From NCBI RefSeq assembly GCF_003018255.1, contig NZ_CP027440.1: a stretch of 64,000 nt of DNA, one strand, 5' to 3'. A program made the position numbers and the translations under genes. Below the pieces are notes generated by a model. That model did not search any database. It saw only the letters and a list, made by a program, of their open reading frames with translations, and was not told the DNA's origin. The stretch is from Escherichia coli. GTDB lineage: Bacteria; Pseudomonadota; Gammaproteobacteria; Enterobacterales; Enterobacteriaceae. This document shows, in pieces, positions 38,417 to 47,520 of this stretch. Every line of letters starts with the position of its first letter. Within the stretch, counting starts at the first letter, position 1.

Positions 38417-39409
38417 ATGCGACATAGCGTACTTTTTGCGACAGCGTTTGCCACGCTTATCTCTACACAAACTTTTGCTGCCGACCTGCCGGGCAAAGGC
38501 ATTACTGTTAATCCGGTTCAGAGCACCATCACCGAAGAAACTTTCCAGACGCTGCTGGTCAGCCGCGCGCTGGAGAAATTAGGTTATACCGTCAATAAAC
38601 CCAGCGAAGTGGATTACAACGTTGGCTACACCTCGCTTGCTTCCGGCGATGCAACCTTCACCGCAGTGAACTGGACGCCACTGCATGACAACATGTACGA
38701 AGCTGCCGGTGGCGATAAGAAATTTTATCGTGAAGGAGTATTTGTTAACGGCGCGGCACAGGGTTACCTGATCGATAAGAAAACTGCCGACCAGTACAAA
38801 ATTACCAACATCGCGCAACTTAAAGATCCGAAGATCGCCAAACTGTTCGATACCAACGGCGACGGTAAAGCGGATTTAACCGGCTGTAACCCAGGCTGGG
38901 GCTGCGAAGGTGCGATCAACCACCAGCTTGCCGCGTATGGACTGACCAATACCGTGACGCATAATCAGGGGAACTACGCAGCGATGATGGCTGACACCAT
39001 CAGTCGTTACAAAGAGGGTAAGCCGGTGTTTTACTACACCTGGACGCCGTACTGGGTGAGTAACGAACTGAAACCGGGGAAAGATGTGGTCTGGTTGCAG
39101 GTGCCGTTCTCCGCACTGCCGGGCGATAAAAATGCCGATACCAAACTGCCGAATGGCGCGAATTACGGCTTCCCGGTCAGTACCATGCATATCGTTGCCA
39201 ACAAAGCCTGGGCCGAGAAAAACCCGGCAGCAGCGAAACTGTTTGCCATTATGCAGTTACCAGTGGCTGATATTAACGCCCAGAACGCCATTATGCATGA
39301 CGGCAAAGCCTCAGAAGGCGATATTCAGGGCCACGTTGATGGCTGGATCAAAGCCCACCAGCAGCAGTTCGATGGCTGGGTGAATGAGGCGCTGGCAGCG
39401 CAGAAGTAA
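38417..39409 (+). CDS. proX: Glycine betaine/proline periplasmic binding protein
   Basis: Start at [28 protein letters not shown] (signal peptide), 330 aa. Confidence 0.93.
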
Positions 39410-39415
39410 TTTTTA

Positions 39416-39493
39416 TTCGGGCGGATAAGGCGTTTTTGCCTCATCCGCCGCTCTGTACACAATGCCTGATGCGACGCTGGTGCGTCTTATCAT
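39416..39493. repeat. REP elements downstream of proX
   Basis: GGGCGGATAAGGCGTTTTTGCCTCATCCGCC and GCCTGATGCGACGCTGGTGCGTCTTATCA palindromic units. Confidence 0.75.
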
Positions 39494-39600
39494 ACCTACA
39501 AACCACACCGCACATTTCAACAATCTATCTTTCATCCCATATTCATCAACATCCGCTATTATTGATTTCCAGCTTAATCATCACCTGATGAACAAAAATA

Positions 39601-40785
39601 ATGACTAAACCTAATCATGAGCTTAGCCCGGCGCTGATCGTGCTGATGTCTATCGCCACCGGCCTGGCGGTAGCCAGTAACTATTACGCCCAGCCATTGC
39701 TCGACACCATCGCGCGTAACTTTTCCCTTTCCGCCAGTTCGGCAGGCTTTATTGTTACCGCCGCGCAGTTGGGCTATGCCGCAGGTCTGCTGTTTCTTGT
39801 TCCCCTCGGTGATATGTTTGAACGCCGCCGCCTGATTGTCTCGATGACCTTACTGGCAGCAGGCGGCATGTTAATCACTGCCAGCAGTCAGTCGCTGGCG
39901 ATGATGATCCTCGGTACAGCATTAACCGGTTTATTTTCAGTCGTGGCACAAATTCTGGTTCCACTGGCAGCGACGCTGGCTTCACCGGACAAACGCGGCA
40001 AAGTGGTTGGCACCATTATGAGCGGTCTGCTATTGGGGATCTTACTCGCACGGACCGTTGCCGGATTGCTGGCGAATCTCGGCGGCTGGCGCACCGTCTT
40101 TTGGGTTGCTTCGATGTTAATGGCACTGATGGCGCTGGCATTATGGCGTGGTCTGCCACAAATGAAATCAGAAACCCACCTTAACTACCCACAGTTGTTG
40201 GGTTCCGTTTTCAGCATGTTTATCAGCAATAAGATCCTGCGCACCCGCGCGTTGCTGGGCTGCCTGACCTTTGCCAACTTCAGCATTCTCTGGACCTCAA
40301 TGGCCTTTTTGCTTGCCGCTCCACCTTTTAACTACAGCGATGGTGTAATTGGTCTGTTTGGGCTTGCGGGAGCTGCCGGAGCGTTGGGCGCTCGTCCGGC
40401 GGGCGGTTTTGCCGATAAGGGCAAATCGCACCACACCACAACTTTCGGTCTGCTGCTGCTGTTACTTTCATGGCTGGCAATCTGGTTTGGTCACACTTCC
40501 GTACTGGCGCTGATTATCGGCATCCTGGTGCTGGACCTCACCGTGCAGGGCGTGCATATCACTAACCAGACGGTAATTTATCGAATACACCCTGATGCGC
40601 GTAATCGCCTGACCGCAGGTTACATGACCAGCTACTTTATTGGCGGTGCCGCTGGTTCGCTAATTTCAGCCTCAGCCTGGCAACATGGCGGTTGGGCTGG
40701 CGTGTGTCTGGCTGGCGCGACGATTGCCCTGGTTAACTTACTGGTCTGGTGGCGAGGTTTTCATCGTCAGGAAGCCGCAAATTAA
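39601..40785 (+). CDS. ygaY: Major facilitator superfamily transporter YgaY (intact here)
   Basis: 394-aa ORF with 12 predicted TM segments. From memory the K-12 copy is annotated as a pseudogene. Confidence 0.8.
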   Translation: MTKPNHELSPALIVLMSIATGLAVASNYYAQPLLDTIARNFSLSASSAGFIVTAAQLGYAAGLLFLVPLGDMFERRRLIVSMTLLAAGGMLITASSQSLAMMILGTALTGLFSVVAQILVPLAATLASPDKRGKVVGTIMSGLLLGILLARTVAGLLANLGGWRTVFWVASMLMALMALALWRGLPQMKSETHLNYPQLLGSVFSMFISNKILRTRALLGCLTFANFSILWTSMAFLLAAPPFNYSDGVIGLFGLAGAAGALGARPAGGFADKGKSHHTTTFGLLLLLLSWLAIWFGHTSVLALIIGILVLDLTVQGVHITNQTVIYRIHPDARNRLTAGYMTSYFIGGAAGSLISASAWQHGGWAGVCLAGATIALVNLLVWWRGFHRQEAAN

Positions 40786-40908
40786 GCAATCAGCAACCGT
40801 TTTCGTGGCTTTACACTTATAAGGGTGTTAAGAAGCCCATCAGTCTGATAAGGTTAAGATATTCATTCAGTCTATTTATAATATTAACAATCGTTAAGCG
40901 TACACTCT

Positions 40909-41646
40909 ATGGAAAGCCCTACTCCACAGCCTGCTCCTGGTTCGGCGACCTTCATGGAAGGATGCAAAGACAGTTTACCGATTGTTATTAGTTATATTCC
41001 GGTGGCCTTTGCGTTCGGTCTGAATGCGACCCGTCTGGGATTCTCTCCTCTCGAAAGCGTTTTTTTCTCCTGCATCATTTATGCAGGCGCGAGCCAGTTC
41101 GTCATTACCGCGATGCTGGCAGCCGGGAGTAGTTTGTGGGTTGCTGCACTGACCGTCATGGCAATGGATGTTCGCCATGTTTTGTATGGCCCGTCACTGC
41201 GTAGCCGTATTATTCAGCGTCTGCAAAAATCGAAAACCGCCCTGTGGGCATTTGGCCTGACGGATGAGGTTTTTGCCGCCGCAACCGCAAAACTGGTACG
41301 CAATAATCGCCGCTGGAGCGAGAACTGGATGATCGGCATTGCCTTCAGTTCATGGTCATCGTGGGTATTTGGTACGGTAATAGGGGCATTCTCCGGCAGC
41401 GGCTTGCTGCAAGGATATCCCGCCGTTGAAGCAGCATTAGGTTTTATGCTTCCGGCACTCTTTATGAGTTTCCTGCTCGCCTCTTTCCAGCGCAAACAAT
41501 CTCTTTGCGTTACCGCAGCGTTAGTTGGTGCCCTTGCAGGCGTAACGCTATTTTCTATTCCCGTCGCCATTCTGGCAGGCATTGTCTGTGGCTGCCTCAC
41601 TGCGTTAATCCAGGCATTCTGGCAAGGAGCGCCCGATGAGCTATGA
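40909..41646 (+). CDS. ygaZ: AzlC-family branched-chain amino acid (valine) exporter subunit
   Basis: 245-aa membrane protein; paired with the overlapping ygaH. Confidence 0.88.
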
Positions 41647-41971
41647 GGTTCTGCTGCTTGGGTTACTGGTTGGCGCGGCGAATTATTGCTTCCGCTATCT
41701 GCCGCTGCGCCTGCGTGTGGGTAATGCCCGCCCAACCAAACGTGGCGCGGTAGGTATTTTGCTCGACACCATTGGCATCGCCTCGATATGCGCTCTGCTG
41801 GTTGTTTCTACCGCACCAGAAGTGATGCACGATACACGCCGTTTCGTGCCCACACTGGTCGGCTTCGCGGTACTGGGTGCCAGTTTCTATAAAACACGCA
41901 GCATTATCATCCCAACACTGCTTAGTGCGCTGGCCTATGGGCTAGCCTGGAAAGTGATGGCGATTATATAA
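41636..41971 (+). CDS. ygaH: AzlD-family exporter small subunit
   Basis: 111-aa membrane protein overlapping the ygaZ stop. Confidence 0.88.
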
Positions 41972-45703: not shown

Positions 45704-46411
45704 ATGAATACCCAACGAAAATACGGGAGAACCTGGCATTATCCTTTCTCCCCCGGCACCACCAGCGATGACCGCATTAATGCCGATTACTGGCAGGATT
45801 TACAGGCCATCACGCAATTGGTGCACACAGAAAAACTCGACGGTGAAAATAACTGCCTTAACCGCTACGGCGTGTTTGCCCGTTCCCATGCCGCGCCTAC
45901 GCAGTCGGCATGGACCTATAAAATTCGCCAACGCTGGCAACTGCTGAAAAACGATCTCGGCGATCTGGAGTTGTTTGGTGAAAATCTTTATGCCGTGCAT
46001 TCGATTGAATATCGCGCCCTGGAGCAGGATTTTTATCTGTTTGCCGTTCGCTGCCAGGATATGTGGCTGAGCTGGGAAGAGGTGCAGTTTTACGCCGCTC
46101 TGTTTGATTTCCCCTGCGTTCCCGAAATCTCCGGCCCGCAACCGGGGAATGATGAAAAAAGCTGGCAACGTGATTTTCTGGCGCTGACCAATGCGCGCGG
46201 CGCGTTCGATCCCTGGGATACGCAAACCGGGCAACCCTGTACGCTGGAAGGCATTGTCAGCAGGAATCGTGATGCGTTTTCCGTCGCTGACTTTTCGCAT
46301 AACGTCTTCAAGTATGTGCGCAAAAATCATGTCAAAATCACCGTCCACTGGAAACGACACTGGCAACGGGCGCGGATGGCCCATGAGTTCGATTATGGAG
46401 AACAGTCATGA
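45704..46411 (+). CDS. Minimal ATP-dependent RNA ligase (Rnl2-like nucleotidyltransferase domain only), putative
   Basis: 235-aa ORF with covalent nucleotidyltransferase motifs at Rnl2-like spacing: I EKLDGEN (K44), III LFGENLY (E93), IIIa DFYLFAV, IV EGIVSR (E182), [11 protein letters not shown] (K203/K207). Stop overlaps the downstream start (ATGA). Confidence 0.7.
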
Positions 46412-47520
46412 TTTGGCAGCTTACCGACGACAAACGCTGGTCGGCGCTACGTCAGCGTTTTAGCTGGGTTGAGGAGATGCATCACACGCCACAAGACCCG
46501 GAGCATCATGGTGAAGGTGACGTCGGCGTGCATACCGAAATGGTGCTGAACGCCCTCGTTACTCAGCCAGAATTCCAGCAACTCCCCGCTCAACAGCAGG
46601 AAGTTTTATGGGCGGCGGCGTTATTGCATGATGTTGAAAAGCGCAGCACTACCGTGCAGGAAAACGGACGTATTCAGTCGCCTGGCCATGCTCGTCGGGG
46701 CGAACTGACGGCCCGACAAATTTTATGGCGCGATATCCCAACGCCGTTCGTGCTACGCGAGCAAATTGTTGCGCTGGTGCGTCTGCATGGGTTACCGCTA
46801 TGGTTACTGGAACGTCCGGAACCGGAGCGTTTGCTGCTCACGGCTGCAATGCGCATCGACACGCGTCTGCTCGCTTTGCTTGCTCGTGCCGATCTGCTTG
46901 GTCGCCAAAGCCCGGATCAGCAATCAATGCTGGAACGCATCGATCTGTTCGAGCTGTTTTGCCATGAGCAACAATGCTGGGGAAAAATGCGCCCGTTCGT
47001 TTCTGATTCCGCACGCTGGCACTACCTGACTCATGAGCAAAGTTCTCCTGATTTTGTTCCCTGGGAGGCTGAACCTTTTGAGGTTATTTTGCTGTGTGGC
47101 TTACCGGGTATGGGCAAAGATCGCTATATCAGTGAACAGTGCCAGGGAATGGACGTTATCAGCCTTGATGATATGCGGCGGCGAATCAATGCCAGTCCGG
47201 ACGACAAAACCGCCACCGGGCGTATTGTGCAACAGGCAAAAGAAGAGGCGCGCGTTTTTTTACGCCAGAAAAAGCCGTTCATCTGGAATGCAACGAACAT
47301 TACCCGCCAGCTGCGCAGCCAGCTCATCAGTCTGTTTACGGCTTACGGCGCACGAGTAAAAATCGTTTATCTGGAAGTGCCATGGGCGCAATGGAAGCAG
47401 CAAAATGCCAGACGCGAGTATGCAGTTCCTGAAGCGGTCGTGATGCGGATGGCCTCAAGGCTGGAAGTTCCTCAACCTGATGAAGCACATAGCGTGGAAT
47501 ATCGGATGACTGACAGGTAA
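46408..47520 (+). CDS. HD-domain phosphoesterase fused to P-loop polynucleotide 5'-kinase (HD-Pnk-like end-healing enzyme), putative
   Basis: 370-aa ORF. N-terminal HD motifs (H33/H34, LLHDVEK with H74-D75, further His/Asp at H127, D162); C-terminal Walker A GLPGMGKD (231-238) followed by DD and [11 protein letters not shown] segments typical of AAA_33/Pnk kinases. Confidence 0.7.

Follow-up and report, generated by a model that had tools for sequence, protein, structure and literature searches.

The closest described relatives of the ygaY product are found in the YnfM (acriflavin-sensitivity) family of MFS transporters, TCDB 2.A.1.36. YnfM of Escherichia coli (b1596; TCDB 2.A.1.36.1) is an MFS protein that exports glutarate, among other compounds, and appears to be proton-coupled: it has been described as a CCCP-sensitive glutarate exporter in BL21 and C. 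glutamicum, it also exports anthocyanin, and the YnfM proteins of E. coli and C. glutamicum export dicarboxylates. On the other hand, the Salmonella orthologue of YnfM, CuiT, has been reported as a Cu importer, so the direction of transport is not uniform in this family. YgaY itself (P76628) is listed as TCDB 2.A.1.36.3, a member of the YnfM family with the substrate "Unknown" (PMC5417439), and the gene serves the K-12 literature as a neutral pseudogene control or integration locus. A search of the literature for ygaY together with MFS, pseudogene and Salmonella returned no functional study of the intact protein.

The window analysed here, i.e. the whole stretch of 64,000 nucleotides of E. coli DNA, contains exactly one ORF at 39601..40785 (+), of 1185 bp and 394 aa, located between proX and ygaZ. 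It begins with an ATG that is the earliest start codon past the upstream in-frame stop, and the identical 1185-bp CDS is annotated by PGAP as "MFS transporter" (WP_000165690.1) in the genomes 2014C-3338 and JNE23-011, whose DNA is 100% identical in this region; the first-pass annotation was thus right to describe an uninterrupted frame of 394 codons with a plausible start. An open frame of this length at ~55% GC would far exceed what could arise by chance. We are highly confident that 39601-40785 is the ancestral, functional form of ygaY, which would encode a proton-coupled transporter of the MFS/YnfM type with 12 TM helices, likelier an exporter, and which K-12 lost by a recent 7-bp deletion. 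The features of the region to which we refer below are the following:

38417-39409, plus strand: proX, the last gene of proVWX and the upstream neighbour of ygaY (ORF; annotated with a length of 993 bp in the identical genomes)
39419-39496, no strand assigned: REP/BIME element in the proX-ygaY spacer (Rfam RF02564 naRNA4, 60 bits; gathering score 59.5)
39601-40785, plus strand: ygaY CDS, 394 codons plus stop; MFS transporter, YnfM family, TCDB 2.A.1.36.3
39802-39831, plus strand: MFS motif-A-like TM2-TM3 loop, residues 68-77, PLGDMFERRR (family alignment)
39852-39870, plus strand: site of the 19-bp deletion in the urinary isolate S115 (ACTGGCAGCAGGCGGCATG, between TTA repeats; global alignment)
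39855-39861, plus strand: 7 bp, GGCAGCA, kept in the window and missing from K-12 (pairwise alignment; outgroup comparison)
40534-40569, plus strand: polar stripe of TM10, D312, Q316, H319, N322 and Q323, a candidate site (family alignment)
40854-40882, plus strand: sigma-70 promoter of the ygaZH operon, TTAAGA-17-TATAAT (consensus scan, 10/12; the sole promoter match)
40909-41971, plus strand: ygaZ-ygaH, AzlC/AzlD-type L-valine exporter, the downstream neighbours (ORFs and annotations), with ygaZ at 40909-41646 and ygaH at 41636-41971

The protein matches the Pfam family MFS_1 (PF07690) in two stretches with 138.3 bits against a gathering score of 33.4 (E 3.8e-40), and an exhaustive HMMER search collected 1140 cluster representatives at E <= 1e-30, of which 100 full-length relatives at 33-56% identity were aligned with the window protein to give a family alignment of 101 sequences. 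The AlphaFold model built on this alignment (mean pLDDT 95.2, pTM 0.93) exhibits the MFS architecture: its 12 TM helices form two bundles of six, which a linker helix (196-209) connects. The helices of the first bundle span approximately residues 10-40, 45-71, 75-94, 99-126, 132-161 and 163-184, and those of the second 211-239, 247-272, 276-298, 301-327 and 331-393, the last segment being TM11 and TM12, which DSSP merges and hydropathy splits near residue 360. The 12 hydrophobic segments counted in the first-pass annotation are thus found again both in the hydropathy peaks and as the helices of a high-confidence model. Lys and Arg residues cluster in the predicted cytoplasmic loops (75-77, 131-134, 183-216, 265-275, 328-336 and 385-389), suggesting the usual N-in/C-in topology of the MFS; YgaY would therefore be an inner-membrane protein of 394 residues with both termini in the cytoplasm.

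Motif A of the MFS, G-x-x-x-D-R/K-x-G-R-R/K, lies in the TM2-TM3 loop, and YgaY carries it at residues 68-77, with its central G replaced by E. Within the family alignment P68 is conserved in all 101 sequences, G70 in 92, D71 in 99, R75 in 83 and R76 in 75. R151 of TM5 is conserved in 100 of the 101 sequences, and so are four residues of the TM10 stripe in most of them: D312 in 88, Q316 in 87, N322 in 88 and Q323 in 89. Further family-conserved positions are Y28, Q31 and P32 in TM1, Q56 in TM2, Q117 in TM4, D272 in the TM8-TM9 loop, and R336, and the window protein keeps all family-conserved residues.

According to BLASTP, residues 1-390 of YgaY align with residues 20-414 of K-12 YnfM at 25% identity (E 1e-19), and this full-length similarity, together with the TCDB listing, places YgaY in the YnfM family; the 96.5% nucleotide identity to b2681 and the same flanking genes place it in the ygaY orthologue group. 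Both YgaY and YnfM are MFS proteins with 12 TM helices that conserve motif A and the arginine of TM5. However, the pairwise alignment reveals that D312, Q316, N322 and Q323 of the YgaY subfamily are not conserved in YnfM, suggesting that the substrate of YgaY probably differs from that of YnfM. The two genes also differ in their surroundings: ynfM adjoins ynfL, which encodes a LysR-type regulator, whereas no regulator gene adjoins ygaY in the annotation.

Structural comparison leads to a second group of described transporters, the DHA1 antiporters. The top matches of the model in a Foldseek search of the PDB, SotB (6kkk/6kkl; TM-score 0.84-0.90), MdfA (4zp0/6euq; 0.84) and NorA (8ttf; 0.81), match it over ~380-394 aligned columns and are all H+ antiporters/exporters. 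They share with the YgaY model the two-bundle architecture of 12 TM helices and an acidic residue within the membrane that could serve proton coupling, but the sequence identity is only 15-17%, and a search of the PDB by sequence retrieved only weak matches (GlcP 1.6e-7, SotB 9e-4). Moreover, motif C of the antiporters includes G-P, which is missing from TM5 of YgaY, GTIMSGLLLGILLARTVAG. Neither the window protein nor any of the 101 family members reached the cut-off of an NCBIfam equivalog or subfamily model, and the DHA1 models in particular were far below theirs: 48.8 bits versus 200.9 for Bcr/CflA, 37.5 versus 479 for EmrD, 51.9 versus 400 for Cmx/CmrA, and 63.6 versus 401 for the SotB-type model PRK03545. 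Because all these matches are sub-threshold, no substrate can be assigned by profile. YgaY is accordingly filed as an MFS transporter, YnfM family, ygaY orthologue, and not as a member of DHA1, although it probably works like the DHA1 antiporters.

By homology of fold, YgaY would most likely be a secondary transporter that draws on the proton gradient and alternates access by a rocker-switch movement of its two six-helix bundles. R151 in TM5 and D312, Q316, N322 and Q323 in TM10 are the probable substrate/proton site, with D312 as the likely site of protonation and R151 and the Gln/Asn residues probably lining the cavity. The substrate would be a small organic metabolite, and the direction is likelier export, to which we give somewhat better than an even chance. 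Pointing to export are the structural neighbours SotB, MdfA and NorA, the full-length (albeit sub-threshold) NCBIfam similarities, all of which are to exporters (SotB-type sugar efflux, Cmx/CmrA, Bcr/CflA and EmrD), the dicarboxylate export by YnfM of E. coli and C. glutamicum, and the genomic neighbours ygaZH and emrRAB, which are annotated as efflux systems.

The alternative that survives best is that YgaY is functional but acts as an H+ symporter, i.e. an importer. The best-scoring NCBIfam model is that of the aromatic-acid/H+ symporters, with a partial match confined to the N-terminal half, in contrast to the full-length similarities to exporters; the best PDB match by sequence is the glucose symporter GlcP, while the structural neighbours export; and the example of CuiT in Salmonella stands against the exporting YnfM proteins of E. 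coli and C. glutamicum. Likewise, ygaY adjoins the proVWX uptake system, but its other neighbours, ygaZH and emrRAB, are devoted to efflux. We regard import as possible and distinctly less probable than export. The neighbours of distant homologues (50-57% identity) include an AraC-type regulator with an FMN-binding protein, Rdx/RNase T, and an old-yellow-enzyme, among which we found no conserved partner and no functional hint.

It is tempting to consider a narrower role, in which the intact YgaY would be a dedicated metabolite exporter, for instance an efflux valve for osmolytes or organic acids, partnering the ProU uptake system, valine export by YgaZH and efflux by EmrAB. We regard this as a long shot. 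If it were true, the 7-bp deletion would account for some of the differences in metabolite export or stress that set K-12 apart from B or wild strains.

Whatever YgaY transports, the gene has been maintained across species. Orthologues of 393-394 aa are found in E. marmotae (98% identity), E. fergusonii (97%), E. albertii (95%) and Citrobacter (93%), as well as in Shigella, and the order nrdEF-proVWX-ygaY-ygaZH-mprA-emrAB is identical at the loci of E. fergusonii, E. albertii and Citrobacter. All interspecies pairs exhibit a dN/dS of 0.03-0.05 (Nei-Gojobori) at dS from 0.27 to 1.5, and the comparison of the window with K-12 gives 0.02, with 33 synonymous and 2 nonsynonymous differences (M172V and N210D). 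These ratios indicate that ygaY has been strongly purified by selection throughout.

This conservation bears on another reading of the locus, namely that the ORF is intact but silent or cryptic in this strain, being bound by H-NS and devoid of a promoter of its own. A simple consensus scan of 39300-41000 found no sigma-70-like promoter in the 190-bp spacer, in which the REP/BIME element separates ygaY from the proVWX operon, and the A-rich leader has no clear Shine-Dalgarno sequence before the ATG and is essentially identical in K-12. The K-12 locus gives an H-NS ChIP signal, and its ygaY DNA joins an H-NS bridge to the downstream regulatory element (DRE) of proU, with transcripts at low levels (Rashid et al.). 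On the other hand, these transcripts can be detected even in K-12, increase modestly upon hyperosmotic shock and are up to 11-fold higher in an stpA mutant (Rashid et al.), and a dN/dS of 0.03-0.05 over dS > 1 across genera, at a constant length of 393-394 codons, requires translation and selection. We consider the chance that the gene is silent slighter still than that of the dedicated exporter, and favor a functional ygaY, for which low or conditional expression is plausible. The single match of the promoter scan lies downstream, at 40854-40882, and the same TTAAGA/TATAAT hexamers have been published as a constitutive promoter for RpoD in the ygaY-ygaZ interval (PMC3946193); since ygaZH has its own promoter, ygaY is not obviously co-transcribed with it. 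Terminator-like matches inside the ygaY ORF, in the scan of the same interval, occur at the level expected by chance. The window, K-12 and E. fergusonii each have one copy of the REP/BIME element; the form found in Citrobacter is more diverged, and E. albertii has an extra tandem copy (4700-5000 of locus L006).

The first-pass annotation described the K-12 gene as a disrupted pseudogene, and the annotations agree: in NC_000913.3 b2681 is a pseudogene of 1178 bp (2808316-2809493), and in an independent MG1655 assembly PGAP describes ygaY as "frameshifted". The K-12 gene (UniProt P76628; TCDB 2.A.1.36.3) occupies the same locus, with identical flanks and a near-identical leader, and the order proX-ygaY-ygaZ-ygaH-mprA-emrA is common to K-12 and the nearest genomes of the window. 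Aligned over its full length, the window gene contains a single indel with respect to K-12, the 7 bp GGCAGCA at 39855-39861, i.e. ORF positions 255-261, codons 85-87, within TM3. In K-12, which lacks these 7 bp, a GGC direct repeat flanks the deletion, the frame is closed at codon 89 by a premature stop, leaving 88 residues, and Met90 opens a second ORF of 305 codons. This two-ORF state is the old split into ygaX and ygaY, still visible in the label "(ygaXY)" for the K-12 locus (PMC3946193). Cut off within TM3 (helix 75-94) by the frameshift, the K-12 product cannot adopt the MFS fold. Reinsertion of the 7 bp into the K-12 sequence yields an open frame of 394 codons, so the deletion is the sole lesion of the K-12 gene, and the restored protein differs from that of the window only by M172V and N210D. 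The K-12 copy is therefore neither intact nor identical to that of the window, and the window gene, with GGCAGCA in place and a frame open to codon 394, is not a pseudogene of the K-12 type.

The deletion is derived and the state of the window ancestral, because 7 bp are present at the site of the K-12 deletion in E. fergusonii, E. albertii and Citrobacter alike. Furthermore, the ratio of 33 synonymous to 2 nonsynonymous differences betrays no decay after inactivation, as expected of a very recent loss in K-12; it would have occurred by deletion between the GGC repeats, truncating the protein inside TM3. That the 7-bp difference is a sequencing or assembly artefact, or that K-12 is actually intact, has next to no chance and is rejected, as nothing speaks for it beyond the general frequency of short indels among assembly errors, whereas the exact junction is common to 353 independent assemblies of K-12 derivatives, the 7 bp are present in ~5048 other genomes and in three outgroup species, and both NC_000913.3 and the independent MG1655 assembly annotate a pseudogene.

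The distribution of the lesion was determined in 5426 complete E. coli genomes, of which 5418 contain ygaY, 5413 of them with a coverage of at least 80%. With a 70-nt query across the K-12 junction, for which a match of at least 95% denotes the deletion and a 7-nt gap its absence, 356 genomes carry the deletion and 5048 do not (5404 in total), counts that score the 7-bp deletion and no other type of mutation. A shorter query of 40 nt over the junction seeds in deletion carriers only and finds the deletion in 353/5426. All 60 carriers sampled evenly from the set are K-12 derivatives, including MG1655, BW25113, W3110-type strains, C600, J53, JM109, TG1, MC4100, S17-1, EPI300, ET12567 and RP437, as well as NEB strains and O16:H48 mouse-passaged isolates, which indicates that the lesion is private to the K-12 laboratory lineage. 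The undeleted gene is thus the normal, ancestral state, found in ~93% of complete E. coli genomes, and K-12 is the exception; in samples of 40 and 60 matches to ygaY nearly all were full-length and free of gaps. The suggestion of the first-pass annotation that this strain may retain a functional transporter therefore stands with regard to function, given the intact frame, the conserved residues and the purifying selection, but not as a peculiarity of the strain, since ~5048/5404 genomes are undeleted; the idea that the window strain is unusual in keeping ygaY is ruled out by these counts. Public annotation already records the gene, its family, its status as a pseudogene in K-12 and its intactness in other strains, and the intact ygaY, being the norm of the species, is a correct but ordinary observation of little discovery value.

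Lesions of ygaY outside K-12 are rare and unrelated to one another. In S115, where PGAP annotates a "frameshifted" gene of 1166 bp, 19 bp are deleted at ORF positions 252-270 (codons 84-90), independently of the K-12 deletion, yet overlapping its site, and in FDAARGOS_1254 the stop codon is lost by a change from TAA to TCA. The K-12 and S115 deletions hit one short stretch, which suggests a small local hotspot of slippage or microhomology; the run CTGGCAGCAGGCGGC, rich in short G/C repeats, may be mildly deletion-prone. K-12 thrives without ygaY, and natural isolates have, if rarely, acquired independent lesions of it, so the gene is dispensable under some conditions. A larger lesion was observed in PCP06021, isolated from seawater in the Galapagos, in which a deletion from about codon 53 of ygaY into ygaH (2501-2963 of locus L012) takes most of ygaY and all of ygaZ, and the shortened ygaH is annotated as intact.

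The wider surroundings of ygaY vary among strains. Over the 24 kb from 28000 to 52000, the window has no identical counterpart among complete E. coli genomes; the closest are the Japanese human isolates JNE23-011 and JNE112863 (99.7%), and only 2847/5425 genomes cover this segment to at least 80% in one piece, which we attribute to variable inserts. One such insert is found at 45704-47520 (+), between emrB and luxS, where to our knowledge K-12 has no genes. It comprises two accessory genes with a 4-bp overlap, encoding an RNA ligase of 235 aa (PF09414, 3.5e-28) and a protein of 370 aa whose C-terminal domain is an AAA_33/KTI12-like kinase/ATPase. This pair is present in only 999/5426 complete E. 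coli genomes, and in E. fergusonii an RNA ligase likewise follows emrB. A PADLOC scan of the pair gave no match; it could be a module of RNA repair or of a defence type.

For the biology of E. coli, the main consequence of our analysis is a change of perspective on a gene that is routinely treated as neutral, be it as a locus or as a control, when K-12 is engineered or its fitness is studied. With respect to ygaY, K-12 is an outlier: almost everywhere else in the species, the gene encodes a transporter, is conserved and under selection, and should not be assumed to be neutral. YgaY should rather be regarded as a well-conserved orphan MFS transporter, for the study of which K-12 and the Keio collection are unusable.
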